DNA of 64,000 bases, taken from assembly GCF_028368995.1 (NCBI RefSeq), contig NZ_JAQNDL010000003.1:1-64000 (forward strand), written 5' to 3'. A model generated the notes under the pieces. It was not told the DNA's origin. It did not search any database and saw nothing but the letters and a program-made list of their open reading frames with translations. Below are positions 763 to 50,900 of the stretch, in pieces. The translations under genes were made by a program, and so were the position numbers. Numbering within the stretch: position 1 is the stretch's first letter; each line of letters opens with the position of its first letter. The stretch is from Nannocystis bainbridge (GTDB taxonomy: Bacteria > Myxococcota_A > Polyangia > Nannocystales > Nannocystaceae).

Positions 763-838
763 CCCCGCCACCCTACGCGCAGGGCCGGGCGCCGGCAAGG
801 CCCCGGCGCGGTCCGCGTTCATTCCGCGGATCGGGCGC

Positions 839-926: not shown

Positions 927-959
927 CTCGCCAGGCAACCCCGCGGCGCGAGCGAGCGC

Positions 960-1709: not shown

Positions 1710-1763
1710 CGGCCGACCAGACCACCGGGGCGCGGAGCTGTCAACGTCGGCCGGCGCGGGTAC

Positions 1764-20865: not shown

Positions 20866-23800
20866 TCACCGCTCCCCGAGCAGCGATTGCCACGCCGGGT
20901 CCTCGCTCATCCGCGACGCGAACGCCGGCTCGCGGCGCAGGCGGTCGCGCACCAGCTCCGGTGCAGGGTCGCTGGCGACAGCCTGCCCTGCGTGGATCAG
21001 CGCGGCGGCCGGGTCGACCTCGGCCAGCAGCAGCGCCAGCGCCAGGTGCGTCTCTGCGCGCTCTGGCCCGTCGGCGTCGGCTTGCTGCGGTCCGCTGGCG
21101 TCGCCCGGCTCATCCCCGAGGGCTGCCAGGGCCGCCTCGAAGTCGCGGCGGGCCAGCGTGGTGGCGCCGAGTTCGCGGTAGATCATCGCCCGGCCGTGCA
21201 GCAGGGCCCGCAGGGCCTGGCGCGCCGCCGCGTCGGGCGCGGCCAGGGCTTCCACCCCCGCCAGCGCCGCCAGCATCGCCTGCTGCACCATCGGGTCGTC
21301 GACGTGATGGCGGGCCAGCACCGGCCAGGTCGCGGCCAGCAGCTCCAGCTCGCGCGGTCCCACGGCTGCGCGCAGCGTCGGCGCCAGGCCGGGGCGGGTC
21401 CGCAGCAGGTGCAGCGCATCGGCGTCGTCGAGCCCCGGCAGCGCCAGCGCGGCCATGCGGGTCATGCCGGCCACGTCCTGCAGCGCGTCGTGGGCCAGCA
21501 GCGCCAGCAGGGCGTGGCGGGGCGAAGCGCCTGCCCGGTCGCCGAGGGCCGCCAGCGCCGCCAGCGGCTCGCCGCCGACCAGCGCCCGGGCCGCGCGGGC
21601 CGCGGGTTCGTCGTCCTCGCTCGGCGCGTCGAGCCGGTCGGCGGCGGGTTCGTCGTCCTCGCTCGGCCCGTCGAGTTGGCCGTCGTCCGCGGTCGGTGCG
21701 TCGATCCGGGCCCCGTGCAAGGAGATCCGGCGGATCTCGGCGACGATCCGGTTGGGCGCGAACACGTCGCCCTCGTGGCCGAGCACGAGGGTGTAGCGGC
21801 CCGCGGCCGGCCTGGCGGTGGCGCGGTGCTCCGCGAGCGCGCGCAGGCCGTCGTCCTCGGCGGCGCACAGGGTCGCGTCGCGGTCGGGGAAGTAGGTCGC
21901 GCGCACGATCACGCGGCGGCGGGTGGCGGCGGTCGCCACCTGGCGGGAGGTCAGCTCTCGCCGCTCGCGAGCGACCGGCAGGCAGTGGGTGCCGTGGTCG
22001 CGGTAGCGGCGGTCGCCGCGGGCGTTGACGCCGACGCCGAGCAGCGGCTGGCCGTCGGCGTCGTGGAGCGCGACCCGCAGGTCGGTGTGGTACTCGGCGT
22101 GGGTCACCTCGAGCTCGAGCTCGAGCTCGAGCGGGCCGCCGTCCCAGCGCACCGGCAGGGTCGCCAGTCGGGTCTGGGCCCCGAGCGCGTCGACCTGCAG
22201 GCCGCCCGACAGCGGGTCGAGCCGCAGCGCCGCCGGCCGCTCGAGCCGCCACGCCGGGTCGAGCGCGCCGCCGGCGAAGCGCAGCTCGACCGACTCGCGG
22301 GCGTCGAGCAGCGGCGCCAGGCGGCCCACCACGTCGCTCGCCGCCGCCGCCTGGGCCGGGCTGCGCCGCGGGTGCGCCTCGAGCCGGCGGGCCGCCTCCA
22401 GCGCCTCGCGGTGGCGACCGAGCTCGGTCAGCAGCTCGGCGCGCCGCAGCCACGCGGCCGGGGCCAGCTCGGGGTCGTCGAGGCTGCCGCGGTCGAGCGC
22501 GAGCGCCTCCTCGGCCTGGCCGGCGACCGCGTGCAGGGCCGCGGCCCGGTCGGTGAAGCGCCGGCGCACCGCCTCGTCGGCGACCAGCGGCGCCGCCGCG
22601 CGCAGGACCTCGGCGGCGCTGGCCGGCAGCCCGCCGGCGGCCAGCTCGTCGGCGCGGGTCCAGCGGTCGCGCAGCAGCTCGTCGTCGAGGCCGGCCGGCG
22701 GGGGCGCGGACGCGGGCGCCGGGGTCGGCGCGGGCGGCAGCGCGACGTCGCCGACCCCGAGCCCCCACAGCGCGTGGTGGTCGTCGGCCAGCAGCAGCGC
22801 GCGCCCCGGCCCGTCGCCGGCGCGCACCGCCGCCAGCGGCGCGCCGTGGCCGAGCACCAGCGGCAGCAGCTCGCCGTCGTCGCCCTGGTGGATCAGCAGG
22901 GTGTGGATCAGCCCCCCGCCGCGGATCGGCAGCGCCAGCTCCTCGCGCGCGTCGCCGTCGAGGTCGGCCGCGATCAGCACCCCGTCGCGCAGCTCGAGCG
23001 CGAGCCCCTCCGGCGGCGGCATGTGCGAGGCCGTCACCAGCGCGGCGCCGTCCCAGCGCAGCAGGTGCACGCCGGGCGCCTCGCCGATGTGCGGCGGCTC
23101 GGGGAACACGTCGGCGTTGACGCCGAGCCCGTCGCGCACGGCCACCAGCACCAGCTCGCCGTCCGGCCGCCGCAGCAGGCCCAGGCTCTGGACCCACCCG
23201 AACTGGCGCCGGCCGACCAGCTGCAGTTGCCCGTCGTCGTCGGCGTGAAACACCCGCAGATCGAAGGCACGCGGCGGCCCGAACGCGGCCACGATCTCCT
23301 GCACGCCGTCGCCGTCGAGGTCACCCGCGATCAGATCCTCGAGATCGGAGCCGTTCCGCGCGCTGGCCGGGTGGGCCTCGCGCGGCGCGGCGCCGTCGGC
23401 CTCGACCGCGTGGAAGCCCCGCAGCGGCCAGCGGTACTCGAAGTACAGCTCGGGCCCGCCGTCGCCGTCGGCGTCGACGATCCCGCGCGGCAGCAGCTCG
23501 GCCGCCGCGGGGAAGCGCGCCAGCGGCTCCTGCGGCGCGCGCAGGTCGAGCAGCGCGGCGCTGCCCTGGCGGAACGTCACCCCCCACGGCGCCGCCCCGT
23601 TCGCCAGGTAGACCCTCGCCTCGGCCTGCCAGCGCGGCCCCGGCTGCAGCGCTTCGTCGAGCAGCACCACGCCGCTGCCGCCGGCGTCGATCACCGCCGC
23701 GCGCCACGGCCCGCCTGGCGGCAGCGCGACCGCCCCGCTCGCGCTGGTGTCGATCGCCCGGGCCCGCGCCAGGTGCTGCAGCAGCGGCCGCACCGCGGCC

Positions 23801-25329
23801 AGCCGGGCCGGCGCCGCCTCGCCCAGCAGCTCCACCGCGGCCGGCAGGTCGCGCCGGCGCAGCGCCGCGTGGAAGTGCAGCGCGTGGTCCTGCGGGTCGC
23901 CGGGCGCGTCCGGCAGCGCCTGGACCACCCGCGTCAGCGCGGCCGTGTCCCAGCCCTCGAGGTGGAGCTCGGCGATCCGCCGCAGAGCCGCGTGGGCGTC
24001 GGCGGGCGCGGTCGCGTCGGCGTAGGCGCGGGCGTAGTCGGCCAGCGCCCCCTCGCGCTCGCCCGCGGCGTGGCGCCGGTCGCCGCGCTGCTGCCAGGCC
24101 CGCACCAGCGCCTGCGTGCCCTGGTGCGCCGGGTCGTCGAGGAACGCCTGGAAGGCCGCCGCCGCGCGCTCCGGGTCGGCCTCGCCGGCGACCGCCGCCA
24201 GGTGCTCGGCCGCCAAATCCTCGATGCGCTCGCGGGTCCACGTGCGCCGCAGGTGCAGCGCCGCCAACGTGGCGACCAGCGTCACCGCGGCGATCGCCAG
24301 CGCCAGCCCGGCCCGCCGCAGCCGCACCCGCCGGCGCACCGCCGGGTCGGCCGCCAGCGCCGCCAGCAATTGCGACATCGTCTGCCAGCGCCGCTCCGGG
24401 TCGACCCGCAGCCCGCGCAGCACCACCGCCCGCAGCCACGCCGGCACCTGCGCGTGCGCGGGCGGCCGCACCGCGCCGGCCAGCGACGCGGCGCGCAGCG
24501 TCTCGTAGCTGGCGGCGGCGAACGGCCGCTCGCCGTACAGCGCCTCGTACAGCGAGGCGCAGAAGCTGAACACGTCGCTGCGCGCGTCGGCCCGGGCCCC
24601 GCGGTGCTGCTCGGGGGCCATGTACGCCGGCGTCCCGAGCACGCTGCCGGTCGCGGTCAGGTCGAGCGAGGCCATGCGGCGGTCGTCCGGATCGGGGGCC
24701 GCCTCGGTGCCGTCGTCGCCCACCAGCCCGAAATCCAGCAGCAGGACCCGCCCGTCCTCGCCGACCATCACGTTGTCGGGCTTGAAGTCGCGGTGGACCA
24801 GCCCGGCCCGGTGCACCTCCGCCAGGCCGCGCCCGGCCGCCACGAACAGCTCGACGATCCGCGAATACGTCGCCTCCGGCTCGACCTCCGCCAGCTGCTG
24901 GCGCAGCGTCCGCCCGCGCACGTACTCCATCGCCAGGAACACCCGCCCCGCCGAGGTGCTCACGTCGTAGATCTGGACGATGTTGAGGTGCGACACGCGG
25001 GCCAGCGCCTTGGCCTCGCGGATGAACCGCCCCACCACCGCCGCGCTGCTGCAGTCGGTGCGCAGCATCTTGAGCGCGACGACGCGGTCGAGCACGTCGT
25101 CGTAGGCGGCGTGGACCACCCCGACTCCCCCCTGCCCGAGCACGCGCAGCAGCCGGTAGCGGCCGAGCTGCGGCGAAGTCGGCGACGACTCGGCCGGCCC
25201 GCGCGGCCCGCTGCCCAGCGGCCCTCCGTCCTGCGACCCGTCCCACGTCTCGGCCAGCGCCTGGCCGGGCGCCTGGCTGAGCGTGCGCAGCGGTTCGTCC
25301 CCGGCCACGTGGCGAGTATGCCCCGACAT
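20866..25329 (-). CDS. membrane Ser/Thr protein kinase with FG-GAP and TPR-like C-terminal region
   Basis: LGQGGVGVV, HRDFKPDNV, DFG, GTPAYMAPE, TM helix, DLDGDG repeats; ATG at 25329. Confidence 0.9.
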   Translation of the reverse strand: MSGHTRHVAGDEPLRTLSQAPGQALAETWDGSQDGGPLGSGPRGPAESSPTSPQLGRYRLLRVLGQGGVGVVHAAYDDVLDRVVALKMLRTDCSSAAVVGRFIREAKALARVSHLNIVQIYDVSTSAGRVFLAMEYVRGRTLRQQLAEVEPEATYSRIVELFVAAGRGLAEVHRAGLVHRDFKPDNVMVGEDGRVLLLDFGLVGDDGTEAAPDPDDRRMASLDLTATGSVLGTPAYMAPEQHRGARADARSDVFSFCASLYEALYGERPFAAASYETLRAASLAGAVRPPAHAQVPAWLRAVVLRGLRVDPERRWQTMSQLLAALAADPAVRRRVRLRRAGLALAIAAVTLVATLAALHLRRTWTRERIEDLAAEHLAAVAGEADPERAAAAFQAFLDDPAHQGTQALVRAWQQRGDRRHAAGEREGALADYARAYADATAPADAHAALRRIAELHLEGWDTAALTRVVQALPDAPGDPQDHALHFHAALRRRDLPAAVELLGEAAPARLAAVRPLLQHLARARAIDTSASGAVALPPGGPWRAAVIDAGGSGVVLLDEALQPGPRWQAEARVYLANGAAPWGVTFRQGSAALLDLRAPQEPLARFPAAAELLPRGIVDADGDGGPELYFEYRWPLRGFHAVEADGAAPREAHPASARNGSDLEDLIAGDLDGDGVQEIVAAFGPPRAFDLRVFHADDDGQLQLVGRRQFGWVQSLGLLRRPDGELVLVAVRDGLGVNADVFPEPPHIGEAPGVHLLRWDGAALVTASHMPPPEGLALELRDGVLIAADLDGDAREELALPIRGGGLIHTLLIHQGDDGELLPLVLGHGAPLAAVRAGDGPGRALLLADDHHALWGLGVGDVALPPAPTPAPASAPPPAGLDDELLRDRWTRADELAAGGLPASAAEVLRAAAPLVADEAVRRRFTDRAAALHAVAGQAEEALALDRGSLDDPELAPAAWLRRAELLTELGRHREALEAARRLEAHPRRSPAQAAAASDVVGRLAPLLDARESVELRFAGGALDPAWRLERPAALRLDPLSGGLQVDALGAQTRLATLPVRWDGGPLELELELEVTHAEYHTDLRVALHDADGQPLLGVGVNARGDRRYRDHGTHCLPVARERRELTSRQVATAATRRRVIVRATYFPDRDATLCAAEDDGLRALAEHRATARPAAGRYTLVLGHEGDVFAPNRIVAEIRRISLHGARIDAPTADDGQLDGPSEDDEPAADRLDAPSEDDEPAARAARALVGGEPLAALAALGDRAGASPRHALLALLAHDALQDVAGMTRMAALALPGLDDADALHLLRTRPGLAPTLRAAVGPRELELLAATWPVLARHHVDDPMVQQAMLAALAGVEALAAPDAAARQALRALLHGRAMIYRELGATTLARRDFEAALAALGDEPGDASGPQQADADGPERAETHLALALLLAEVDPAAALIHAGQAVASDPAPELVRDRLRREPAFASRMSEDPAWQSLLGER

Positions 25330-25950
25330 CGCCGCGCTCCGACGCCGATCCTCCGGCAACGGGTGCGCGCCAGCGCGAGTCACCGCCCGGACGCAGAGGA
25401 CTCCTCGCAGCGCGCGCCCGCAGTCCCATGAATTCCTCCGCAAGGTCCTCGCCCCGCCGGCACACATTCGCCGCGGACGAATGACCACGCGTCCCCCCGC
25501 GCGACCGGACACTTGCAACCCCGCACCGGCCACCGGCAAACCCTGATGACAACCCAGCCGCCGCCCCTGTCCCCGCCCGTATCCAGCCGGACGCGGCTCT
25601 CGCCGTGAGTTCCTTCGTTTCAAGCCAAAACCGGCGGACGTTGCATCTGCCAGCAAGCCCCGCGAACTACAATCATACGAGTCGCCGCGACGATTCCGTA
25701 GCGACGCACCATCGCCCCCAAATCCCCGCAGCGAGAGTGCCACCATTCTCGTCAGACTCGCGGGCGATTCACCAGAGACGCTCGCGCCGTCGACTCGCCC
25801 CCCGTGCCGCGAGACTCGCCCTCACAGCACGTATAGGATGGCTTGAGCCGGGCGGCCGGCTCCGAGCAAGCGGTATTCTCGTGAAGCGGCCCACGGCACG
25901 AGGCGTGTCGCCGATGCCCGCATCGACCCGCGTGAACCATGCTGTCACCC

Positions 25951-27207: not shown

Positions 27208-28170
27208 ATGCGTAAAATGACCTTCTCTGGCCCCCAGCTCTGCCGCCTCGTCGGCGCCGCCGTGGGCCTGCTGGCGGCCTGCAGCGACGACGGCCGCGAC
27301 TCGGGCACCGCCAGCGCCGGCGTCACCGCCAGCGCCGGCATCACCACCGCCTCGACCACCGCCCCCGGCACCACCACCGCCCCCGGCACCACCACCGGCG
27401 ACGACGGCACCGGCACCAGCACCGACGCCGTCGCCACCACCGGCCCGACCACCACCGACGCCTCGACCACCACCGCCGAGCCCATCACCACCAGCGGCGG
27501 CGCCAAGTTCGACCTCGGGGCCATGCCGGACGTCGGCATGACCGAGTGCGTCGATTGTGCCCTCACCATCGATTCGCAGCAGTCGGGCACCCTGGCGATC
27601 CTCGGCCCGAACGTGTTCGCCACCGCCGAGCTCGACGGCGAGATCGTCTACGCGCTCGGCAACGCCGGCCCTGGCCGCTTCATCGCCACCGCCGACAGCA
27701 GCCTCCCCTTCAACGAGCAGTCCGACTGCCCGATCCGCGAATGGCTGGCCGGCAGCCCCGACCCGAACCCCAAGCTGTTCTGGTTCGGCTGGGGAGAGTC
27801 CGACGGCCCCGCCAATTGGAACTACCCCGGCGAATCCTCGCTCTACCACCTGCCCCCGCAGTACGTCGGCAACCCGGCCCAGCTCAAAGCCGACTACGAC
27901 ATCGTCATGTACCTCGAGGGCTCGGGGCAATTTGACGACGGCGACCAGCCCACCGATCAGGAGATGCAGACGCTGCTCGAGTTCGTCACCGTCTACGGCG
28001 GCGGCGCCTACATCAGCTCGGAGTTCGCCGGTTACCTCAAGGCCGCCGACTACGCCAGCGTCAACCGCGTGCTGACGCCGCTCGGGGTCCAGGCGCTCGA
28101 GGTCAACCTCAACTGGGGCGACGTGAACGGCGCCATCGAGTTCACCTGTTTCCCCGCGCCGGTGGGCTGA
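27208..28170 (+). CDS. lipoprotein with Thr-rich linker and unknown C-terminal domain
   Basis: Lipobox LAAC, TTTAPG repeats, KFDLG motif, globular C-terminal domain. Confidence 0.8.
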
Positions 28171-28270
28171 GCTCGCTGCGGGCCCGCGCGATCCTCACGC
28201 CCGCGGGCCCGCTGCGTCGGCCTTGGAGTCGGCCGCGCCGCGATGCTATCCTCCGACGCTCCGAGGCCCG

Positions 28271-28873
28271 GTGACCGATCCCCACGACCGTCCCTCCGCC
28301 GACGCGGTAATCCCCCCGATGATGGAAGCCGTCACCACGCTGCTGCGTGGAGTCGGCGAGGACCCTGGCCGCGACGGCCTCGAGCGCACGCCCGAGCGCG
28401 TCGCCAAGGCGCTGCAGTTCCTCACCAGCGGCTACGACCAGTCGCTCGAGGTCCTGCTGAACGGCGCGATCTTCGACGTCGGCCACGACGAGATGGTGGT
28501 CGTCCGCGACATCGACCTGTTCAGCCTGTGCGAGCACCACATGCTGCCGTTCATCGGCCGCGCGCACATCGGCTACATCCCCGACCGCAAGGTCGTCGGC
28601 CTGTCCAAGCTGGCCCGCGTGGTCGAGATGTTCGCCCGCCGCCTGCAGGTCCAGGAGCGGCTCACGCGGCAGATCGCCGAGGCCATCCAGGAGGTGCTGC
28701 AGCCGCACGGCGTCGGCGTCGTCATCGAGGCCAGCCACATGTGCATGATCATGCGCGGGGTGCAGAAGCCCAACTCGTGGACGGTGACCTCGTCGATGGT
28801 CGGGGTGTTCCGCGACAACCTCAACACGCGGCAGGAGTTCCTCAACCTCATCCGCCACAAGGTCGTGTTCTGA
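28271..28873 (+). CDS. folE: GTP cyclohydrolase I
   Basis: [42 protein letters not shown]; start uncertain. Confidence 0.97.
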
Positions 28874-28883
28874 GGGGCCACCG

Positions 28884-29249
28884 ATGGAGATCTTCCGCGT
28901 CTACCACTTCGAGGCCGCGCACCGCCTGCCGGCCGTCCCGCCCGGTCACAAGTGCTTCCGCCTGCACGGCCACTCGTACGAGATCGACATCCGCGTGCGC
29001 GGCCCGGTCGGCGCCGACACCGGCTGGATCATGGACCTGGGCGACCTCGACATCGCCTGGGAGCCGCTGCACCGGGTCCTCGACCACCACTATCTGAACG
29101 AGGTCGAGGGCCTGGAGAACCCGACCAGCGAGCACCTGGCGCGGTGGATCTGGCGCCGCCTCAAGCCGTCGCTGCCGCTCCTGAGCGAGGTCGGCGTGCG
29201 CGAGACCTGCACCTGCGGCTGCATCTACCGCGGCGAAGACGAGACCTGA
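28884..29249 (+). CDS. queD: 6-carboxytetrahydropterin synthase (PTPS-I/QueD)
   Basis: FEAAHRLP, CFRLHGHSY, LDHHYLNE, NPTSEHLA. Confidence 0.9.
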   Translation: MEIFRVYHFEAAHRLPAVPPGHKCFRLHGHSYEIDIRVRGPVGADTGWIMDLGDLDIAWEPLHRVLDHHYLNEVEGLENPTSEHLARWIWRRLKPSLPLLSEVGVRETCTCGCIYRGEDET

Positions 29250-29256
29250 GGCCCTG

Positions 29257-29781
29257 ATGACCGCCAGCACCGTCGACGCCCCCGAGTTCACCGAGCTCAC
29301 CACCATCGAGCTCTTCAAAGAAGCGATGAAGTTCTCGGCCGGGCACTTCACGATCTTCTCGAAGGACCGGCGCGAGCGGCTGCACGGCCACAACTTCGCG
29401 GTCCAGGTCAGCATCACCGGCGAGCTCGACGACAACGGGATGATGGGCGACTACGGCGAGTTCAAGCGCATCGCCTTCGACCTGTGCCGCAGCCTCGACG
29501 AGTGGACGCTGCTGCCCGGCCGCTCGCCGTACCTCACGCTGCGCGAGGACGGCCCCTACGTGTTCGCCGAATTCGCCGGCGAGACGATCCCGTTCCTGCG
29601 CAGCGACGTGCAGGTGCTGCCGCTGCGCAACATCACCGTCGAGGAGCTGGCGCGCCACCTGTGCCACCGCCTGGTCGACGAGGGCAAGATCCTCGCGGTC
29701 GCGCCGATCCACCGCCTCGAGGTCAAGGTCTCGTCCGGCCCGGGTCAGCTCGGGGCCGCCGGCTGGCGGAGGGGCGCATGA
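29257..29781 (+). CDS. PTPS family protein, PTPS-III-like
   Basis: FSAGHFT, ERLHGHNF (ExxHGH), NITVEELA. Confidence 0.85.
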   Translation: MTASTVDAPEFTELTTIELFKEAMKFSAGHFTIFSKDRRERLHGHNFAVQVSITGELDDNGMMGDYGEFKRIAFDLCRSLDEWTLLPGRSPYLTLREDGPYVFAEFAGETIPFLRSDVQVLPLRNITVEELARHLCHRLVDEGKILAVAPIHRLEVKVSSGPGQLGAAGWRRGA

Positions 29782-35338: not shown

Positions 35339-36001
35339 TCAGGCCGCCATCGCCGCCGTGCGCACGTGCTCCGGCGAGATCCCGAAGTGTTCCCGCACCT
35401 GCTCGATCGGCCAGGTCAGCATCGCCGCCCAGTCGGCCCCGAACAGCGGCCGCGTCGTCTGGCCCAGGCGCCAGCCGCGGGTGATCGCCTCCATGCGCCG
35501 GTCGCCGTCCTCGTACTGGAACAGCATCCCGTTGAGCAGCCCCGCCGACAGCAGCAGGTGCCCGAGCGGCGACTGCAGCTGGGCGATGTAGAACGCCTGC
35601 AGCCCCAGCTCGCCCGCCACGTCGGTGTCGAAGCCGAGCACCGTGTGCCACAGATCGTGGCTGCGCTCGAGGTGCAGCTTCATCAGCGCCGCGTCGCCGA
35701 CCGTGTCGGCCGCGCTGTGATAGACCCCGTTCGGGTCGAGCTTGCGCGCGTCGAGGAAGCGGGCGAACTCGCGGCCCAGGCTGCCCTCCGGCAGCGTTCG
35801 CAGCGCCTCGAGCTTCAGCTGCAGCGGCGCCAGCGGGCGCTCCAGGTAGGTCTTCACTTCGGGGCGGGCCAGCATGCGCCGCAGCCCCGGTGAGTCGTCG
35901 AACGCGTCGGCGAGGGCGAACACCAGGTCGAGGCGATCGGTGTCACGGACGAGGCGGACGTAGGTGCTGGCGAAGCGGAACAGGCCGACGATCTTGCGCA
36001 T
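35339..36001 (-). CDS. Coq4 family protein
   Basis: LPEGSLGREF, HDLWHTVLGF, GELGLQAF. Confidence 0.88.
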   Translation of the reverse strand: MRKIVGLFRFASTYVRLVRDTDRLDLVFALADAFDDSPGLRRMLARPEVKTYLERPLAPLQLKLEALRTLPEGSLGREFARFLDARKLDPNGVYHSAADTVGDAALMKLHLERSHDLWHTVLGFDTDVAGELGLQAFYIAQLQSPLGHLLLSAGLLNGMLFQYEDGDRRMEAITRGWRLGQTTRPLFGADWAAMLTWPIEQVREHFGISPEHVRTAAMAA

Positions 36002-36033
36002 GCGAATCACTCCCTGCGGGCTTGCGGAGAAGA

Positions 36034-36047
36034 TGAGTCTTTGCTCA
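36034..36047. promoter_or_regulatory. candidate TetR operator TGAG-N6-CTCA
   Basis: Short inverted repeat in the 70-bp divergent intergenic region. Confidence 0.3.
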
Positions 36048-36071
36048 GATCCTCGCCACTCGCTTTTCCGC

Positions 36072-36710
36072 ATGGCCGCCCCCGCCCGCAAAAAGCCCGT
36101 CAAACGGCGCCGCAGCCCGATTCAGAGCCGAGGTCAGGTCACCGTCGACGCCATCGTCGAGGCGGCCGCTCAGATCTTGGCCAAGAAAGGTCCGGCGGCC
36201 GCGACCACCAACGCCGTCGCCGCGCGCGCCGGCGTCAGCATCGGCACCCTCTACCAGTACTTCGCCGACCGCGAGGCCCTGCTGCGCGAGATCGGTCGCC
36301 GTCACGTCGCCGAGATGCAGGCCGTGCTCGCCGGCGCCCTCACCGGCATGGAGGGCCTGGCGCTGCCGGCCGCCGTCGATCGCCTCGTCTCCGCGATCGT
36401 CGCCATGCACCGCGTCGCCCCGCGGCTGCACCAGGCGCTGCATCAATCGCTGGCCCGCGACCACCTCGACACCATCGACGCCTTCGAGGTCGCCGTCGAG
36501 GCGATGGTCGCCAGCGCCCTCGTCGGCCGCGGCGACGACCTCGACCTGCCCCACCCCGAGCTCACCGCCACCGTGCTGGTCCGCGGCCTCGGCGGCCTGA
36601 TCCGCACCACCCTCCGCCGCGAGCCCGAGCGCCTCGACGACCCCGCCCTCGCCCTCGCCATGCGCGCGATGATCCTCGGCACCCTCGGCGAGAGCCGCCG
36701 CAAGGGCTGA
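36072..36710 (+). CDS. TetR/AcrR family regulator
   Basis: PIQSRG, TTNAVAARAGVSIGTLYQYF HTH. Confidence 0.93.
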   Translation: MAAPARKKPVKRRRSPIQSRGQVTVDAIVEAAAQILAKKGPAAATTNAVAARAGVSIGTLYQYFADREALLREIGRRHVAEMQAVLAGALTGMEGLALPAAVDRLVSAIVAMHRVAPRLHQALHQSLARDHLDTIDAFEVAVEAMVASALVGRGDDLDLPHPELTATVLVRGLGGLIRTTLRREPERLDDPALALAMRAMILGTLGESRRKG

Positions 36711-36852
36711 CGGGCGCCAGTAAAGCTCGCAATCCCTCGTGACGCCCACGGCGCCGCTTCGCCACGGGCCCATCGCTCGCCGCGTGGCGACGCCCTCTCC
36801 AAGCCCTCTCACGGATCCGCGTGACGGCGCTCCCGCCTGGCCGCACCAGCAT

Positions 36853-36940
36853 CATGTCGAATAGAACATGTCTTAAAAAGCATGTTCATTAAGACATGTC
36901 CATTAGAGCATTCCCGTTCGAGCATGCTCGTTCGGCCATC
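36853..36940. repeat. 14-bp-period CATG array (7 units)
   Basis: CATG at 36853, 36867, 36881, 36895, 36923; CATT at 36909; CATC at 36937; in-phase CATG also at 36993. Confidence 0.9.
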
Positions 36941-37010
36941 CTCGCCCGACACGGCACCCAGCCCCACGATCGGCGCTGGGCTCGGCTTCGGACATGCCCT
37001 TTCAATCAGA

Positions 37011-38495
37011 TCATTCGCTCGCCCGGCGCAGCACGAACAGCCTCGCCGCCGGCGCCGCGGTCGGGCCTGGCAGCGTGCTCGCGGCCTCACGCTCGAGCGT
37101 GAACGCCGGCGCGAACGGCCCCGCGATCGTCTCCTTCGCGTACGGCGTCACCCCGGCGGCCGGTTCGGCCAGCGTCTTCACGATCAGCGCCCCGCCGGGG
37201 GCGACCAGCCGGGCCATCGCCGCCGCATGGCGCTCGGCCTCCGCCGGCGCCAGCAGGTGCAGGCACGCGCGATCGATCGCCGCGTCGAACCGGCCCTGCA
37301 GGCGCGTCGCCGTGATGTCGTCGCTCAGCCAGATCGCCCGGCTCGTCGGCGCACGGGCGCGGGCCTGCGCGAGCGCGGCCGCCGAGATGTCGGTGGCGAC
37401 CACCGTGTGACCGCGGCTCGCCAGCGCCACCGCCAGCGCGCCCAGGCCCGTCCCGACCTCGAGCACGGACAAGCCCGTCGCGCCCTCGCGCTCGACCGCC
37501 GCCAGCAGGTCCGCGTCGGCCTCGTCGTGCTGCCACGGCAGCTCGGCCGGCGCGTGCGTGCGGTACAGCCGGTCCCAGCCCTCGGCCCCGCGCGGCGCCT
37601 GGGCCAGCCCCGCGCTCGCGCGCTCGCGCACGATCGCCTCGAGCAGCTGCACCACCACCTCGGGCGGCGGCGCCCCGCCCAGCATCGGCGTGCGCATCGC
37701 CGGCGGATCGGCGACCTCCAGCGCGCGCGCCGGGTGGGCCACGTGCAGCCCGTCCGCGATCAGCTGCGCCAGGTTGCGCTGCACCGCCGGCTCCGCGTAC
37801 ATCGCGGGGTTCATCGACGGCACCACCAGCACCGGCGCGCGCGTCGCCAGGGCGATCGCCGCCACCGCCGACGCGTGGTCCCCCGTCGCCAGCCGCGCGA
37901 TCGTCGTCGCCGACGCCGGGCACACCAGCACCGCGTCGGCCCACTGCGCCAGCTCGATGTGCGGCACCCGATGCACCTGGCTCTCGGGCCAGATCGCCGT
38001 CACCACCGGCGCGTGCGTCAACGCCTCGAGCGCCTCGACCCGCACGAACCGCAGCGCGCTCTCCGTGACCGCCGCGCGCACCTCGAAGCCGCGCGCCTGC
38101 AGCCGCTGGATCAGCGCCGGCGCGTGCATCGTCGCCGCCGCCCCCGTCAACCCCACCACCACCCGCGGCCCGGCCGTGCGCCCTGCCCGTGACGGCCCCG
38201 TCGTCACCGCCTCGAGCGCCCCCGTGCGCCGCAGCAGCGCCAGCAGCTCGCCGATCACCTCGGGCCGCTCGATCGGCGCCCCGGCCAGCGCCTCGACGTG
38301 GGCCAGCACCTCCGCCCCCGAGCGCGGCATCGCCAGGAACGCCAGCACCGCCGACGCCAGCGCCGCCGAGTCGCCGGTCAGCGCGTGGCCCTCGCCGTCC
38401 GGGCCCAGCGCCACCAGGCGCTCGCCGCATTCGTAGATCCGCACCACCGAGGCGCGGCGGAGGTTCCATTCGGTCCAGCGCTCGGGGTCCGTCAT
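37011..38495 (-). CDS. three-domain fusion: RRE/PqqD-like + HFCD flavoprotein + class I SAM methyltransferase
   Basis: VGLTG, PHIELA, PASATT, PSMNPAMY; VLEVGTGLG, DIS, DRACLH. Confidence 0.85.
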   Translation of the reverse strand: MTDPERWTEWNLRRASVVRIYECGERLVALGPDGEGHALTGDSAALASAVLAFLAMPRSGAEVLAHVEALAGAPIERPEVIGELLALLRRTGALEAVTTGPSRAGRTAGPRVVVGLTGAAATMHAPALIQRLQARGFEVRAAVTESALRFVRVEALEALTHAPVVTAIWPESQVHRVPHIELAQWADAVLVCPASATTIARLATGDHASAVAAIALATRAPVLVVPSMNPAMYAEPAVQRNLAQLIADGLHVAHPARALEVADPPAMRTPMLGGAPPPEVVVQLLEAIVRERASAGLAQAPRGAEGWDRLYRTHAPAELPWQHDEADADLLAAVEREGATGLSVLEVGTGLGALAVALASRGHTVVATDISAAALAQARARAPTSRAIWLSDDITATRLQGRFDAAIDRACLHLLAPAEAERHAAAMARLVAPGGALIVKTLAEPAAGVTPYAKETIAGPFAPAFTLEREAASTLPGPTAAPAARLFVLRRASE

Positions 38496-38541
38496 CGTCG
38501 TCCTGAGTTCTCGCAGCCCGACCGGGCCGCCCGGGATGCTA

Positions 38542-39000
38542 TCATATGATCAGCAGCCGACACTCACCGTCGATCCACGCGCACAGCTGCTGCACCCCGC
38601 AGACCGCCTCGTCGGTGATCTGCGAGCAGTCGACCGTGCATTGCACGATCTCCGGCGGCCACACGCACAGCGGCGTCGCCTCGCACGTCGGCTGGTCCTC
38701 GATCTCGTCGCAGTCCGGGACGCCGTCGGTCTCGGCGTCGGTCGTCACCGACGTCGCCACTGTCGGATCGGTCGTCGAGGTCGTCGGCCCGCTGGCCGTC
38801 GTGGTCGTGCTCGTCGGGCCGTCGGTCGAAGTCCCGGGGGTCGTGTTCGTGGTCGATTCCGTCGGGTCGTCGGTCGCCCCGGAGGTCACGACCGTCGTCG
38901 ACGGCTTGTCGTCGCCGTCGTTGCAGGCCGGCGCCGCGGTCACCGAGGACACCGCGAGGATCGCCGGCACGCACAGTCTTCGTCCGATGTCGGGTCGCAC
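38542..39000 (-). CDS. lipoprotein with Thr-rich linker and two Cys-rich repeats
   Basis: Signal ending APAC; DC..I.D...C.....C.W......C twice. Confidence 0.75.
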   Translation of the reverse strand: MRPDIGRRLCVPAILAVSSVTAAPACNDGDDKPSTTVVTSGATDDPTESTTNTTPGTSTDGPTSTTTTASGPTTSTTDPTVATSVTTDAETDGVPDCDEIEDQPTCEATPLCVWPPEIVQCTVDCSQITDEAVCGVQQLCAWIDGECRLLII

Positions 39001-39119
39001 GCCTGCAGCCTATCACGCCCCTCCTCGCGCGGATCGCGGCAGCCTGCGGCCGGCGCCCCCCAGAGCGGACGCGCAAGCTCGAGCACCAGGCTGCGCCCGA
39101 CGGCAGGCCGACGCGCGGA

Positions 39120-39193
39120 CAGGCCCGATCCGACATGCCCCGACCGCCATGCTCTCAAGATCATGTCCTATGCGACATGTCCTTTGATGCAGG
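39120..39193. repeat. 14-bp-period CATG array (6 units)
   Basis: CAGG at 39120, CATG at 39134, 39148, 39162, 39176, CAGG at 39190. Confidence 0.88.
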
Positions 39194-39429
39194 TATCCGA
39201 TCCTTGCGATCGCCACGATGCCGCCGAAGATCAATGTCGGCACTGCGCGCCGCGCGACCGAAATGCCCGGTGCGCTCGCGGCGGCCGCCGCCCGCGGGGC
39301 CCTGTGCGCGGCTCCCCGTGAGCGCTGCGACGAATCGAAAAAACGCGACGAATCATCGTTCCGTAACAGTTCCACCGGCGAATCCGCTTCCCAGCCCCGG
39401 CCCACGCCCCCTCGGGCTATGCTCGCGCG

Positions 39430-40638
39430 ATGGAGCCCGAGTACCCGATCCTCTCCGAGGCCTTCTTCGCCGATCCCTATCCGCTGCTCCGCCAGCTCCG
39501 CGAAGAGTGCCCCGTCTATTATCATGCCCCGCTCGGCGCGTGGTTCCTCGCCCGCCACGACCACTGCGAGATGGCGGTCCGCGATCGTCGTCTGAGCAAT
39601 GCTCGCGCCCGCGAGCTGCTTTCGACGCTGATGCCGACGCTGCGCGGGACCGGCGAGCTCGAGGCGATGATCGGCCAGTGGTCGCGCCTGTTGTGGTTCC
39701 TCGATCCGCCGAAGCACACGCGCAGCCGCGGGCTGGTGATGCGGGGCTTCAGCGCCGCGGCGATCGAGCGCGTGCGCGGCGAGGTGCGCGCCAGCGTCGA
39801 ACAAGCGCTGGCGAACGTCGCCGGCGGCGGCGAGATCGACGTGGTGTGGCAATTGGCCGACCCGGTCGCGCTCGACGTCCTCTGCGCGATCTTCGGCCTC
39901 CCGCACGACCAGCGGGCCGAGTTTCGCCGCTGGACCACCGACATCATGCAGGCCGCCGGCGCCGGCGCCATGGACGAAGATCCGGCGATGCGGGCCAAGG
40001 AGTCCTCCTTCAAGCTGTTCGGCCTGCTCTCGGCGATCGTGCACGAGCGGTGCGCGCGGCCGGGCGACGACATGATCAGCCGCTTCCTCGGCGACGAGCG
40101 CGGCGATCCGGCGGTGATCGAGGAGGTCACGATCCAGTGCTTCCAGATGGTCGGCGCCGGCTACGTCACCTCGCGCAACCAGATCGCCTGCGCCGTGCTG
40201 GCCCTGCTCGAGCACCCGGACGAGCTCGCCCGCCTGCGCACCGACCCGCGCCTGCTGGTCCCGGCGATCGAGGAGCTGCTGCGCTTCGCGCCCTCGGTGC
40301 TGACCACCAACCGGCTCGCCGCCGAGGACCTCGAGATCGGCGGCAAGCAGATCCGCCAGGGTCAGCTGGTGTTCCCGATCCTCGCCTCCGCCAACCGCGA
40401 TCCCGCCGCCTACGTCGAGCCCGACCGCCTCGACCTCGCCCGCGGCGGCCGGCCGATGACCTTCAGCGTCGGCCCTCACTATTGCCCGGGCGGCCCGCTG
40501 GCGCGGCTCGAGCTCGAGGAGGCGCTGGCGGGCCTGCTGCGATTCTCGTCGTGGCAGCAGCTCGGCGATTTCGACTACCGCGGCGCCAGCCTGCAGGACC
40601 GCGGCCCCTCCCAGCTGCGCGTGCAGCTCGGGGTCTGA
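39430..40638 (+). CDS. cytochrome P450
   Basis: DPPKHTR, EELLR, ANRDP, FSVGPHYCPG. Confidence 0.95.
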   Translation: MEPEYPILSEAFFADPYPLLRQLREECPVYYHAPLGAWFLARHDHCEMAVRDRRLSNARARELLSTLMPTLRGTGELEAMIGQWSRLLWFLDPPKHTRSRGLVMRGFSAAAIERVRGEVRASVEQALANVAGGGEIDVVWQLADPVALDVLCAIFGLPHDQRAEFRRWTTDIMQAAGAGAMDEDPAMRAKESSFKLFGLLSAIVHERCARPGDDMISRFLGDERGDPAVIEEVTIQCFQMVGAGYVTSRNQIACAVLALLEHPDELARLRTDPRLLVPAIEELLRFAPSVLTTNRLAAEDLEIGGKQIRQGQLVFPILASANRDPAAYVEPDRLDLARGGRPMTFSVGPHYCPGGPLARLELEEALAGLLRFSSWQQLGDFDYRGASLQDRGPSQLRVQLGV

Positions 40639-46321: not shown

Positions 46322-47569
46322 TCAGGCGGAGGTCATCGTGATCGGCAGCGACTTGAAGCCGCGGACCATCATGCTCGGCAACCATTCGAGCGGCGCGTCG
46401 CTGGCGAGGCGCAGGTCGGAGAAGGTCCGGAGCAGCGTTTGAATGGCCAGACGTCCCTCGAGCCGCGACAGCGCCGCGCCCGGGCAAGTGTGGATACCAG
46501 AACTGAAGGACAGGTGACGTACGTCCTGGCGCTCGATGTCGAACCGGTCGGGATCGGGGAATCGATGACCGTCTCGGTTCGCGGAGCAGAGGACGCTCAG
46601 CACATAGTCGCCGGCGGGGATCCGGCCCCCCGGCAGATCGGTGATGTCCACGAGCGCGCGGCGGAAGGTGCCGAACGTCGGGCCGTCGAACCGCATCAGC
46701 TCCTCGAGCGCGTTGTCGAGGAGGCGCGGCTCCTGGCGCAGGCGCTGCGCCTGCTCGGGCCGGCGCACGAGGATGTTGACCGCGTTGGCCACCATGTACA
46801 GCGTCGTCTCCTGGCTGGCCAGGAACAGGGTCACGCACATCGCCACGAGCTCGGTGTCGGTCATGCCGACGCCGTCGACGCGCGCCTCGACCAGCTTGCT
46901 CAGCAGGTCCTCGGTCGAGCGGCTGCGCCGCGCGGCGATGTGCGCGTTGAAGTATTCGTAGTAGCTCATGACGCCGCGGTACGCCGACTCGACAGCCTCG
47001 GCGGTGGCGATGCCCGCGCCGAACAGCGACATCACGATCAGCGCGTCCTCCCGCAGCCGCTCGCCGTCCTCGCGCGGGATGCCCATGAGCTCGCTGAACA
47101 CGATCATCGGCAGCTGCGCGGCGAAGTCGGCCACCACGTCCATGCGCCCGCGCGGGCGCACGGCCGCCAGCAATTCGTCGATCGCGTGCTGGATCCGCGG
47201 CCGCAGCCGCTCGACCGCCTGGACCGTGAACGCGCGGGAGATCAGCGCGCGCAGCCGCGTGTGGTTCGGCGGGTCCATGAACGCGACCCAGCTCGACACG
47301 AACGTGTTGAACACCTCGAGCTTGTCACGCACGCTCTCGGGCGCGCCGACGCCGTACTGTTCGACCTTCGAGTTGGAGAACTCCGACTTGCTGTCGCGTA
47401 GGACCCGCTGGACGTCGGCGTAGCGGGTGAGGACCCAGCTCTTGAGCAAGGGGTGCCAAAATACCGGCTCTTCCTCGCGCATGCGCGCCAGCGTCGGATA
47501 GGGGTCGGCGAAGAAAGCTGGGCTGAGAATGTCGAACTTGACGGGGGGCGCGGTCGGTTGATGAGACAT
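46322..47569 (-). CDS. cytochrome P450
   Basis: DPPNHTRLR, EELMR, ANRD, FSSGIHTCPG; ATG at 47569. Confidence 0.95.
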   Translation of the reverse strand: MSHQPTAPPVKFDILSPAFFADPYPTLARMREEEPVFWHPLLKSWVLTRYADVQRVLRDSKSEFSNSKVEQYGVGAPESVRDKLEVFNTFVSSWVAFMDPPNHTRLRALISRAFTVQAVERLRPRIQHAIDELLAAVRPRGRMDVVADFAAQLPMIVFSELMGIPREDGERLREDALIVMSLFGAGIATAEAVESAYRGVMSYYEYFNAHIAARRSRSTEDLLSKLVEARVDGVGMTDTELVAMCVTLFLASQETTLYMVANAVNILVRRPEQAQRLRQEPRLLDNALEELMRFDGPTFGTFRRALVDITDLPGGRIPAGDYVLSVLCSANRDGHRFPDPDRFDIERQDVRHLSFSSGIHTCPGAALSRLEGRLAIQTLLRTFSDLRLASDAPLEWLPSMMVRGFKSLPITMTSA

Positions 47570-47946
47570 CGGCGAGGGCTCCGAGGCCGTGGCGGCGACG
47601 GGGCGGCCGGGCCCGTCGACGGCGGTCGAGATGCTTGAGCATACATCGCCGCGCCACGGTGGAGAATGGGCGCTGGGGACCCTTCTGCGAGTGCCGTGGT
47701 GCGCGTGCGACTGGTGCATCGTCGAACGCGTGTGAACGCTGCGGATGGAGCAAGGCGCGGTTTCGTGCCGTTTGCGCGCCATGGCCCGCGGACGATTGTT
47801 CGTGCGTCATCGCCGCCAGGGCGGCAAGGGCCGACCTCGCCTGCGGGCGTGGCCCTGCGCGCCGCGCGAATGCAGGGGTGACGACAAGGACGCCGCCAGC
47901 GCGGCCAGACGGTATGATACGACGGTTCGGCTCAGCGACGCTCGAC

Positions 47947-50900
47947 ATGGACGCCTCTCCACGGTTCTCGCTCAAGCAACGGCTCCACGAGGGGCAGAAC
48001 TCGATCATCTTCCGCGGCGTCCGCGAAGACGAGCAGACCCCCGTCGTCATCAAGGTGCTGAAGGGCGAGTACCCCAGCCCCCGCGCATTGAGACAGTTGC
48101 GCCGCGAGTTCGTCACGCTGCGCGAGCTCGAGGTGCCGGGGGTCGTGCGCGTCTATTCGCTCGAGAACTACGGCAACGGGCTCGCGCTGGTGATGGAGGA
48201 CGACGGCGGCGTGCCGCTCAGCGACGTCATCCACGGCGAGGCGCTGCAGCTGCGGCGGGCGCTCGAGCTGGGCGTGGCGCTGGCCGACACCCTGGCGCGC
48301 CTGCACGCGCGGGCGATCATCCACAAGGACATCAAGCCGCACAACATCCTCGTCAATTCGACGACCGGCAGCGTCAAGCTGATCGACTTCGGCATCGCTA
48401 CCAACCTGGCCCATGAGACAGCCCAGGTCTCGAGCCCCGAGGCGCTCGAGGGCACGCTGATGTACATGTCGCCCGAGCAGAGCGGGCGGGTCAACCGGAT
48501 CGTCGACCAGCGCACCGACCTCTACTCGCTCGGCGTCACGCTCTACGAGATGCTGACGGGCGCGGTCCCGTTCAACGCCAACGACGCGATGGAGCTGGTC
48601 CACAGCCACATCGCCCGCACGCCGGTGCCGCCGTGGGTGCGCACGCCGACGGTCCCCCGCGCGGTCTCCGACATCGTCATGAAGCTGCTGGCCAAGGGGC
48701 CGGAGGACCGCTACCAGCACGCGCTCGGGCTGTCGGCCGACCTCGCCCGCTGCCTGGCGGCGCTCGACGAGACCGGCGAGATCGAGGCGTTCGAGCTCGG
48801 CCAGCGCGACCGCGCCGACGTGCTGCGCATCCCGCAGAAGCTGTACGGCCGCGAGGCCGACATCCGCGCCCTGACCGAGGCGTTCGGGCGGGTCCAGGAC
48901 GGCCGCCCCGAGCTGGTGCTGGTCGGCGGCGGCGCGGGCGTCGGCAAGTCGATGCTGGCCCACGAGGTCCACCGCGTGATCGCCCGCGGCGGCGGCCGCT
49001 TCGTCACCGGCAAGTTCGACCTGGTCCAGCGCAACATCCCGTTCAGCGCCCTGGCGGCGGCCCTGTCCGACCTGCTGCGCCAGCTGCTGACCGAGTCGTC
49101 GCGCACGCTGGCGGAGTGGCGCACGCGCATCCAGCTGGCCGTCGGCAGCAGCGGCCAGCTGGTCGTCGACCTCGTGCCCGAGCTCGAGCGGATCCTCGGC
49201 AAGCAGCCGCCGCTGCCGCCGCTGCGCCCGACCGAGTCGCAGAACCGCTTCGGCCTGGTGATGCAGAACTTCGTGCGCGCCCTGTGCCCGCGCACGTCGC
49301 CGCTGGTGATCTTCCTCGACGACCTGCAGTGGGCCGACGCCGGCTCTCTGTCGCTGCTGCGGCTCATCCTCACCGATCCCGACGGCGGCCACCTGCTGCT
49401 GGTCGGGGCCTATCGCGACGGCGAGGTGGACCTCGCCCACCCGCTGCGCGCGACGGTCACCCAGCTGCGCAAGGACGGCGTGGCCCTCACCGAGCTCGCG
49501 CTCGGCCCGCTCGACCGCGCCAGCGTGCGCGCGCTGCTGGCCGAGACGCTGCTCCGCGAGCGCCCCGGGTCGCCGCCGCCGCGCGAAGAGGTCGAGCGGC
49601 TCGAGAGCCTCGCCACGCTGGTGTTCGACAAGACCCACGGCAACCCGTTCTTCCTGACGCAGTTCCTGACGATGCTGCATCGGAACGGGCAGATCCGCTT
49701 CGACGCGACCACCGGCGGGTGGGCGTGGGACACGGCCGCGGTGGCCGCGGCCCCGATCACCGAGAACGTGGCCGAGCTGATGTCGGAGCGGCTGCGCGAG
49801 TTCCCGGGCGACACCCAGCGCCTGCTCGCCGTCGCCGCCTGCGTCGGCCACGAGTTCGACGTCGTGACCCTGGCGCGGATCGCCGAGCGCAGCACCGGCC
49901 GCGTCGCCGCCACGCTGTGGCCGGCGCTGCAGGCCGGCCTGGTCGTGCCGCTCGACTCCAACTACCGCCTGCTCGAGGCGATCGACGACGGCGCGCCCGA
50001 GGCGAATGAGACAGTGGAGCTGGTGGTCGCCTGCCGGTTCCTCCACGACCGCGTGCAGCAGGCCGCGCTGTCGCTCAGCACGCCCGAGGCGCTGCACGAG
50101 GTCCACCTGCGGATCGGTCGCAGCCTGCAGGCCGCCCACGTCGGCGAGCTCCGCGGCGACGCGCTGTTCGACGTGGTCCGCCACCTCAACGCCGGCGCGC
50201 CGCGCCTCGACGACCCCGGCGAGCGCCTGCATTTGGCCCGCGCCAACCTCGAGGCCGCGCGCGCGGCCAAGCGCGCCACCGCCTACGCCGCCGGCGCCGC
50301 GTTCGCCTCGGCCGGCATCGCGGTGCTGCCGACGGACGCGTGGGACTCGCAGTACGCGCTGACGCTCGCGCTGCACCGCGAGCAGGCCGAGTGCGACTAC
50401 ATGTGCGGCCGCGTCGACCGGGCCGACGCCAAGCTCGCGGACCTGATCGGTCGCGCCCGCTCGCCGGTCGAGCAGGCCGACCTGTTCGCCCTGCGGGTGA
50501 TGCTGCTGTCGTCGCAGGGCCGCTTCGCCGAGGGCCTGGCGGCCAGCCGCGTCGGTCTACAGCAGTTCGGCGAGCTGCTGCCGGAGACGCCCGAGGCGAC
50601 GATGGCGACCTTCGGCGCGGTCTACGGCGAGATCGAGGCGACGCTGGCCGGCCGCACGGTCGAGTCGCTGGCCGACGCGCCGGCGATGCGCGACCCGGCC
50701 CACAGCGCGGTGCTCCGCCTGCTCAACGAGGCGTTCGGCGCCGGCTTCGTGGTCGACGCCCGCCTCGGCTCGGTCGTCATCCTCAAGCACGTCCTGCTGT
50801 CGCTCACCCGCGGCCCGGGCGAGCTGTCGGCCTTCGGCTACGCGACCTTCGGCTACCTGCTGGTCGGCCCGCTCGGCCGCCCCGCCGACGCGCTGCGCTA

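Follow-up and report, generated by a model that had tools for sequence, protein, structure and literature searches.

A three-domain flavoprotein-methyltransferase of Nannocystis bainbridge and the lipoprotein-type protein encoded upstream as its candidate substrate

The subject of this report is a pair of adjacent genes on the minus strand of contig NZ_JAQNDL010000003.1 of Nannocystis bainbridge (assembly GCF_028368995.1). The window, by which the whole analysed stretch of 64,000 nucleotides is meant (positions 1 to 64,000 of the contig), holds a gene for an enzyme in which three domains are joined: one resembling the recognition elements (RREs) of peptides that are made on ribosomes and modified after translation, a flavoprotein domain of the homo-oligomeric flavin-containing cysteine decarboxylase (HFCD) type, and a methyltransferase. 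Directly upstream and in the same orientation lies a gene for a lipoprotein-type protein, called the partner below, which is put forward here as a candidate substrate of the enzyme. The features of the locus are as follows.

38542..39000, minus strand: partner gene, 152-residue lipoprotein-type protein, GTG start, stop codon 38542-38544
38923..39000, minus strand: partner signal peptide, residues 1-26, ending at the lipobox C26, with the conserved motif R8-S19 at 38944-38979 (including P12 and L15)
38545..38727, minus strand: C-terminal domain of the partner, residues 92-152, eight Cys, following a Thr/Pro-rich linker (from the translation)
38496..38541, minus strand: spacer of 46 bp between partner and enzyme, without a terminator-like site (from the sequence)
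37011..38495, minus strand: gene of the three-domain enzyme, 494-residue open reading frame (ORF), stop codon 37011-37013
38202..38495, minus strand: RRE-like winged-helix domain, residues 1-98 (AlphaFold2 model, Foldseek, VIA-align)
37608..38168, minus strand: HFCD domain, residues 110-296, with H179, PSMN (N229) and a clamp E260-V-A-D...R268...G273 without Cys (PF02441, PDB matches)
37014..37589, minus strand: TPMT-like class I S-adenosylmethionine (SAM) methyltransferase, residues 303-494 (PF05724, Methyltransf_25)

The enzyme ORF consists of 494 codons with an ATG start, and its G+C content at third codon positions (GC3) is 0.96, like that of the real genes around it in a window of 73% G+C; for the partner the value is 0.90-0.92. 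A terminator scan of 36600-39500 returned a single site (39358-39346) upstream of the partner and none between partner and enzyme, and a promoter scan at the locus found nothing. A search for RNA data covering the locus listed none, the nearest being two metagenomic runs that contain a fraction of 0.07 of its words.

Domains of the enzyme

The original prediction, made from the letters alone, described an RRE-like region, a LanD-like Cys decarboxylase and a methyltransferase in one polypeptide. All the strings quoted there (LLALLRRTGALE, PHIELA, PASATT, PSMNPAMY, ALEVAD, LPW, LEVGTGLG and DRACLH) are present in the translation, and the three-part architecture is borne out by Pfam and by an AlphaFold2 model of the full-length enzyme with a mean predicted local distance difference test (pLDDT) of 88.9: an RRE-like fold, PF02441 and a TPMT-like methyltransferase follow one another in the same chain.

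The middle part matches PF02441 (Flavoprotein) at residues 111-253 with an E-value of 4.6e-27 and 95 bits against a cut-off of 22.7. In the PDB the best sequence match overall is the CoaC half of CoaBC (6tgv, 2e-21), followed by TvaF (6jls, 4.2e-20) and SpaF (7cfu, 4.9e-18), with weaker matches to MrsD (9e-11) and EpiD (3.1e-6) and also to CypD. The modelled domain superposes on plant phosphopantothenoylcysteine (PPC) decarboxylase, TvaF, SpaF, MrsD and EpiD with target-normalised template modelling (TM) scores of 0.78-0.88; for the last four the range is 0.82-0.88, and the identity to TvaF is 35% over 147 columns. With the LanD-type enzymes (EpiD, MrsD, CypD, TvaF, SpaF) the domain shares the HFCD fold, the His, the Asn of the PxMN motif and the absence of a clamp Cys. 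Those enzymes, however, which are known for making aminovinyl-cysteine rings, are stand-alone proteins of about 170-200 residues without an RRE or a methyltransferase, whereas the HFCD domain in the window has a further domain joined to it at either end. The catalytic His and Asn expected of an HFCD protein are kept: H179, M228 and N229 are invariant in an alignment of 38 relatives, as are E260, A262, R268, G273 and the SAM motifs, and the catalytic residues are retained in all 34 enzymes that reach those columns, regardless of the type of partner. The roles of the active-site His and of the PxMNxxM Asn are presumably those familiar from work on EpiD and CoaC, the Asn binding the substrate carboxylate.

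It had also been claimed that the clamp reads ALEVAD instead of the LACGD of CoaC and that the CoaB part is absent, and both statements hold. The Cys is missing in 38 of 38 relatives, and the CoaBC of the same genome has LACG where the enzyme has LEVAD. TIGR00521, the best NCBIfam match, aligns over no more than profile positions 4-154 of 392, and its 133.9 bits are under the equivalog cut-off of 219.7; against the CypD family NF033753 the enzyme reaches 35.3 bits, far under the cut-off of 215. The enzyme is not the CoaC of the cell. The genome (11.05 Mb in 5 contigs) has three PF02441 genes, namely a full CoaBC (324.9 bits against TIGR00521, above the same cut-off), UbiX and the gene described here, which the separate presence of the other two marks as a paralogue. 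Over 164 residues its flavoprotein domain shares 40% identity with that CoaBC, from which it differs in the score below the equivalog cut-off, in the lack of CoaB and in the change of the clamp from LACG to EVAD. It is reasonable to expect by analogy that the HFCD domain would leave an enethiol, because its clamp has no Cys and because a Cys-to-Ser mutant of plant PPC decarboxylase retains such a product, the title of PDB entry 1mvn naming the C175S mutant with bound pantothenoylaminoethenethiol.

The assignment of the C-terminal part as a TPMT-like methyltransferase is confirmed by PF05724, for which residues 305-450 score 34.1 bits (cut-off 26), and by the agreement of structural neighbours; Methyltransf_25 is matched at residues 344-435 (5.1e-15). 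The neighbours of the modelled domain are Ecm18 (4nec), Rv0560c and halide methyltransferases, and in sequence there is a match to thiol methyltransferase 1 (9h0d, 2.8e-5) beside weak ones to NodS, CypM and a daptide methyltransferase. The domain thus resembles the TPMT-like thiol and halide methyltransferases and Ecm18, whose entry 4nec is titled as converting a disulfide into a thioacetal, and differs from all of these by its fusion to a flavoprotein. The conserved columns are W307, W321, the GxGxG at 348-352, D369, D392-D393 and D408-R409; in the 38 relatives the glycines G348, G350 and G352 never vary, and D369 hardly does. Judged from sequence, the methyl acceptor may be nitrogen or oxygen instead of sulfur.

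For residues 1-105 Pfam gave neither PqqD nor any other family at E <= 1. An AlphaFold2 model of residues 1-108, built on an 80-row alignment in which 16 positions are at least 90% conserved, has a mean pLDDT of 87.3 and consists of four short strands and then three helices, with the three-stranded sheet followed by three helices by which winged-helix RREs are recognised. The Foldseek list for this model is headed by RRE-bearing proteins: the best match is TbiB1 (E 4.0e-3), the first ten rows contain TbiB1, LynD-type heterocyclases, TruD, 3dee, TbtB, ThcOx and TigE, and NisB, MadB, MibB, PqqD, PbtF, lasso B1, McbB and MccB also occur. The entry 3dee is a member of the RRE-bearing BufC family of bufferin systems. 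VIA-align, which is independent of Foldseek, was run against 48,161 chains, and all 7 chains with Z >= 8 carry RRE-type domains (PbtF RRE 9.5, with a root-mean-square deviation of 2.7 over 84 aligned residues, MccB 9.4, TigE 9.0, BmdC 8.8, MibB 8.8, TbiB1 8.8 and lasso B1 8.1), values to be read with the caution that unmatched models, too, commonly reach a best Z of 7-8. As a fold, then, the RRE-like N-terminus of the original prediction stands, RRE domains being at the top of two independent structure searches; matches of a predicted model speak for fold and not for function.

A winged helix could also bind DNA or act as a sensor, regulating the enzyme or the operon without binding any peptide. 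The weak tail of the N-domain profile, which consists of ArsR/HTH_20-type regulators with helix-turn-helix (HTH) domains at E 1e-6 to 5e-5, would fit such a role, as would the plain winged-helix regulators MecI, Fur and PadR found by VIA-align. These regulators, however, reach only Z 5-6 over about 60 residues and are outranked by the RRE domains, which align over 80-90 residues including the sheet, and a regulatory domain would leave the conserved signal-peptide motif next door (see below) unexplained; this explanation is regarded as very improbable.

A search with the N-domain profile against 1.84 billion representatives gave 134 proteins at E <= 0.001. Pfam was applied to 21 of them: in 16 a flavoprotein domain stands directly after the N-domain, and the other five are one 125-residue protein without a Pfam family and four weak-tail, unrelated HTH or other proteins. 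Because the strong profile matches have the flavoprotein domain behind it, the N-domain is, on this sampling, specific to the present enzyme family. Taken together, sequence and models point to a fusion of a domain of peptide-docking type, a flavoprotein of Cys-decarboxylase type and a methyltransferase of sulfur type. In the portions of the literature covered, which included RRE surveys, a LanD mining paper and a review of Cys modification (PMC12710340, PMC7470986, PMC11162475, PMC10989515), no earlier description of an RRE-HFCD or HFCD-methyltransferase fusion was found, the supplements, which may list some, lying outside this scope; nor was a description of an S-methylated LanD-type enethiol found there.

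The upstream gene and its signal-peptide motif

It had been stated that no Cys-terminated precursor lies near the enzyme gene. This holds for the window, where the partner ends in ...LLII, but the co-oriented gene at 38542-39000 had been overlooked. A homologue of the partner (58-67% identity) is present in 5 of 5 Nannocystis loci, and there the whole neighbourhood is syntenic. Beyond these, the DNA upstream of the enzyme was surveyed for 56 distinct N-domains drawn from genomes as well as metagenomes, related genomes not being independent samples. In 28 of the 56 a co-oriented small ORF with a lipoprotein-type signal peptide ends 2-102 bp before the enzyme. Two others, both in genus g37 and with enzymes lacking the methyltransferase (L046 and L171), have an ORF with a Sec-type signal that ends in Cys-Cys and whose stop overlaps the enzyme start; two have a partial Cys-rich ORF upstream; three have too little upstream DNA to be assessed; and 21 have no such gene. 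Lipoprotein-type partners occur in 13 of 20 genera and in 6 GTDB families when loci are mapped to genus codes. The type of partner follows the type of enzyme: those without the methyltransferase, known with a partner from the one genus, pair with Cys-Cys-ended proteins free of a lipobox, and those with the methyltransferase pair with lipobox proteins.

Three loci of the survey showed peculiarities. At L057 a 218-residue protein ending in Cys-Cys (1078-1734, plus strand) lies immediately upstream of the partner-enzyme pair, a single metagenome case. At L137, from Nannocystaceae, a 446-residue MYXO-CTERM-like protein (145-1485, plus strand), with a tail made of a Cys motif, a hydrophobic stretch and a run of Arg, abuts the enzyme start; as a partner it was rejected, being without the motif, and the locus was counted among those with none. 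About 36 bp upstream of the L150 enzyme a Cys-rich, partner-like ORF has just its C-terminal half in frame, its N-terminal part being disrupted, which is possibly a decaying partner or an assembly error.

The mature parts of the partners fall into unrelated classes, that is the eight-Cys domain, whose pattern recurs in other Nannocystaceae loci, small six-Cys forms in two other families and acidic low-complexity tails elsewhere, and Pfam found no family in any of the six partner proteins scanned. What the partners have in common is a motif of the signal peptide, R-x-L-x-[LV]-P-[AT]-x-L-[AT]-V-[ST]-[ST], in which P12 and L15 are at least 90% conserved over 27 aligned N-termini (alignment A4); the lipobox Cys follows the Pro of the motif at a distance of 13-21 residues, 14 in the window. 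A conserved N-terminus with a free-running remainder is, as far as sequence can tell, the pattern of a leader peptide. In its strict form the motif occurs exactly once in the six frames of the 11.05-Mb genome, in the partner. Of the 27 partners 25 have the looser form [LIVMF]P..L, compared with 58 of 1116 generic lipoprotein-like ORFs, and for [LIVM]P[ATV].L[ATSG][VIL] the figures are 17 of 27 and 3 of 1116; by these counts the motif is atypical of lipoprotein signals in this organism. With a profile of A4 the true partner in the genome of the window (G000) scored 63.8 bits and that in G275 54.5 bits, everything else in those two genomes staying at or below 23.7.

Apart from the partner, little recurs around the enzyme. 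BLAST clustering of ORFs of at least 70-80 residues from 8 genome and 13 metagenome loci gave no recurrent neighbour besides the enzyme itself; the filter by size and GC3 hid the small partner genes, which were seen by reading the upstream DNA. Homolog neighbourhoods had been named as the place where short ORFs ending in Cys could be sought. At 25 loci a search reaching 4 kb from the enzyme listed 19 Cys-terminated ORFs, all but one, the 218-residue protein of L057, looking out-of-frame, Arg/Ser/Pro-rich and junk-like, under a filter of GC3 > 0.75 that excluded the ORF of L046 (GC3 0.73). Cys-Cys partners were seen only beside the methyltransferase-free enzymes of L046 and L171.

These results bear on the possibility that the substrate is a ribosomal peptide from another place in the genome, whose C-terminal Cys the enzyme would decarboxylate and S-methylate, the lipoprotein being a co-transcribed bystander or serving export, immunity or reception of the product. 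The conserved HFCD His and Asn would suit such a substrate, and so would a clamp without the Cys that plant PPC decarboxylase, going by the title of 1mvn, needs to proceed beyond the enethiol, the TPMT-like character of the methyltransferase, the 21 of 53 assessable relatives that have no upstream gene, and the Cys-Cys ends of the partners of methyltransferase-free enzymes. Nevertheless, no plausible Cys-terminated small ORF was seen within 4 kb in the 25 loci (the L046 ORF falling outside the filter), no other neighbour recurs in distant loci, and a genome-unique signal-peptide motif, the sole conserved part of the upstream protein, would be left unexplained, so that a peptide from elsewhere must be considered doubtful.

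It is also conceivable that the enzyme acts on a small molecule, as a CoaC-derived paralogue whose reaction would be the oxidative decarboxylation of a cysteinyl thiol metabolite or a non-ribosomal Cys-peptide, followed by methylation of the sulfur, with a vestigial or protein-docking N-domain and an unrelated lipoprotein. In holomycin biosynthesis a LanD-like decarboxylase acts on a Cys-Cys dipeptide, and the thiols of holomycin can be S-methylated. The identity of 40% to the genome's own CoaBC over 164 residues and TIGR00521 as the best NCBIfam match agree with this, as does the fold match at Z 8.8 to BmdC, an oxidase that docks to a non-ribosomal peptide synthetase (NRPS); the window itself holds a module combining NRPS and polyketide synthase (PKS) parts at 57599-64000. 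That module, however, lies some 19 kb from the enzyme and nothing comparable is repeated at the distant loci, the N-domain shows good conservation and is, among strong profile matches, never found apart from the HFCD domain, and the gene pair with its motif tells against a substrate unrelated to the partner. A small-molecule role is therefore judged unlikely.

A candidate two-gene cassette and its proposed chemistry

The interpretation preferred here is that the upstream lipoprotein-type protein is the substrate of the enzyme and that both genes form a two-gene cassette, to which a probability of roughly 0.5 is assigned; any particular reaction is held to be much less likely than the partner being the substrate. 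The partner is made with a signal peptide carrying the cassette-specific conserved motif. Still in the cytoplasm, ahead of export, this signal peptide would serve as the leader to which the RRE-like domain binds; the HFCD domain, dependent on flavin mononucleotide (FMN) as expected from its family, would oxidise a Cys thiol of the partner; the TPMT-like domain, again going by its family, would move the methyl group of SAM to the resulting sulfur nucleophile; and the modified partner would be exported, as its signal peptide and Cys-rich mature domain suggest.

Docking of the signal peptide to the RRE, oxidation by the HFCD domain and S-methylation are proposed because of the analogy with bufferins. 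According to two papers (PMC12452194, PMC12710340), bufferin precursors are small Cys-containing proteins with Sec signal peptides, about 16% of Buf2 having signal peptides of lipoprotein type; in gene order they stand just ahead of the enzyme, the Cys are modified before export with an RRE-bearing partner protein, and the recognition sequence is suspected by the authors to include the signal peptide. As in the bufferin systems (precursor BufA, multinuclear iron oxidase (MNIO) BufB and DUF2063-RRE protein BufC), a gene for a precursor with a signal peptide lies just upstream of a cytoplasmic, RRE-linked modifying enzyme. The present locus differs in having an FMN-type HFCD domain and a SAM methyltransferase in place of a multinuclear iron oxidase, in the fusion of the RRE to the enzyme, and in a specific conserved motif of the signal peptide, none being reported for DUF2282 precursors in the RRE survey (PMC12710340). 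An MNIO (DUF692) domain is absent from the enzyme and from the neighbours scanned. By analogy, the cassette resembles bufferin logic without being a member of that group.

ESMFold2 was used to predict a complex between residues 1-300 of the enzyme and residues 1-48 of the partner. It scored 0.37 (runs of 0.49, 0.37 and 0.29) and the best of three controls 0.00; from run to run at least 57% of the contacts are the same, and the pLDDT of the partner is at least 51. The mark set for such predictions was reached by 116 of 157 solved complexes and by 2 of 215 mismatched pairs, and with a score of at most 0.60 it was reached by 18 of the 157 solved complexes and by both passing mismatches, counts that hold only roughly, custom alignments having been used. 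The predicted complex gives weak support to binding of the partner.

As to the residue that would be modified, the original prediction had proposed decarboxylation of a C-terminal Cys followed by S-methylation of the enethiol. Comparative genomics points instead to the upstream lipoprotein, which ends otherwise, and because this candidate does not end in Cys the proposed chemistry stays a guess for this gene. The Cys-Cys ends of the partners of methyltransferase-free relatives correspond to the classical LanD-type substrate, and the partner in the window differs from them; LanD-type clusters, moreover, have short Cys-ended precursors with dehydratases or cyclases, whereas here no dehydratase is nearby and the likely partner has 152 residues. 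Since the only Cys common to all partners of methyltransferase-bearing enzymes is the lipobox Cys, an internal residue, the target would be either this Cys, oxidised without decarboxylation, or a near-C-terminal Cys exposed by trimming. In the former case the HFCD domain would turn the lipobox Cys into a thioaldehyde or enethiol without decarboxylation and the methyltransferase would cap the sulfur while the RRE holds the signal peptide, a route that is regarded as improbable. In the latter case use could be made of the last Cys, which in several partners lies five to seven residues from the C-terminus.

Several observations weigh against the partner as substrate or against the modification proposed for it. 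Besides the frequency of comparable Z scores mentioned above, Foldseek gave no match of the N-domain in the PDB at E <= 0.001, all RRE matches lying above that value, and the N-domain profile has no sequence link to PqqD or a known RRE family, its tail being ArsR-type HTH proteins. The survey figures, coming from related genomes, are counts and not a test, and the verdict on the predicted complex is weak. The A4 profile gave only background in the partner-less genomes G270, G285 and G120, with best scores of 18.6-21.5 bits; the best small match in G120 was an ordinary lipoprotein in which the motif is absent. Because 21 relatives lack the upstream gene and three such genomes have none elsewhere, it appears from their sequences that the enzyme can exist without a recognisable partner. 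Concerning the chemistry, the Asn taken to hold a carboxylate is invariant in the 38 relatives. The lipobox of the partner is still a normal one, the Cys being preceded by a small residue, which suggests ordinary lipidation of this Cys, a step that S-methylation would block. Trimming could expose a near-C-terminal Cys, but 7 of 28 partners, in which the lipobox Cys is the sole Cys, have none. Finally, known HFCD enzymes act on a C-terminal Cys, as described in a review and a preprint (PMC10989515; 10.1101/2020.08.21.260323), and the partner in the window ends in ...LLII.

As proposed, the system is a new variant of leader-guided Cys modification. If the proposal is true, a new Cys modification, made by an RRE- and methyltransferase-fused enzyme of LanD type, would be added to the chemistry of ribosomal natural products and proteins, and a second case after bufferins would be at hand in which a signal peptide doubles as a recognition leader. 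Should the lipobox route be true, the HFCD family would gain a new reaction and the lipobox Cys a new fate: a protein with the look of an ordinary lipoprotein would leave the cell with a chemically new residue at the processing site instead of a lipid anchor. The signal-peptide motif provides a simple rule for finding more cassettes, and with only two genes, and a concrete candidate now in place of an unspecified substrate, the question is directly testable.

Distribution of the family and other genes of the window

The best 120 relatives listed are 49-86% identical to the enzyme, and all but one of them match 95% or more of the query; those with names belong to Nannocystis, Enhygromyxa, Nannocystaceae and 'Myxococcales'. 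Among 401 genomes sampled evenly across the phylum, matches extending beyond the flavoprotein or methyltransferase part were confined to G000 and eight others, all belonging to the same class. With the N-domain profile the family was found in 47 of 401 genomes of the class and in 20 of 162 genera (a tally that includes G000 and G687). The shorter form of about 285-312 residues without the methyltransferase accounts, by length, for 17 of 134 representatives. A single-protein scan of genome contigs gave 5 loci, all from Nannocystis, and in a metagenome scan by flavoprotein patterns 67 of 80 loci were ordinary CoaBC, with family members only at L047-L059. Seven partner-less enzymes (L050, L053, L161, L162, L165, L167 and L169) share changes at three positions, R240 to A, D or Q, W389 to F or L, and C411 to L (P0001 numbering), and from these substitutions they may form a subfamily with a different substrate.

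The remainder of the window contains several large or unusual genes. The hybrid NRPS-PKS module at 57599-64000 (minus strand) has the order C-A-T-KS-AT-ACP-TE and runs off the window end. Three giant Ser/Thr protein kinases are encoded at 10787-14425 (plus), 20866-25821 (minus) and 47542-53205 (plus); the first and the third are fused to AAA_16/STAND NTPase domains, and the third also has GAF, HisKA and HATPase domains. Genes for GTP cyclohydrolase I (28127-28873, plus) and a 6-pyruvoyl-tetrahydropterin synthase-like protein (29185-29781, plus) adjoin each other as a pair of pterin or queuosine type. The predicted ORFs of a Coq4-like gene (35339-36103, minus) and a divergent TetR regulator (35964-36710, plus) overlap by about 140 bp; all 5 Nannocystis loci compared have this pair in synteny with the enzyme, which does not extend beyond the genus.

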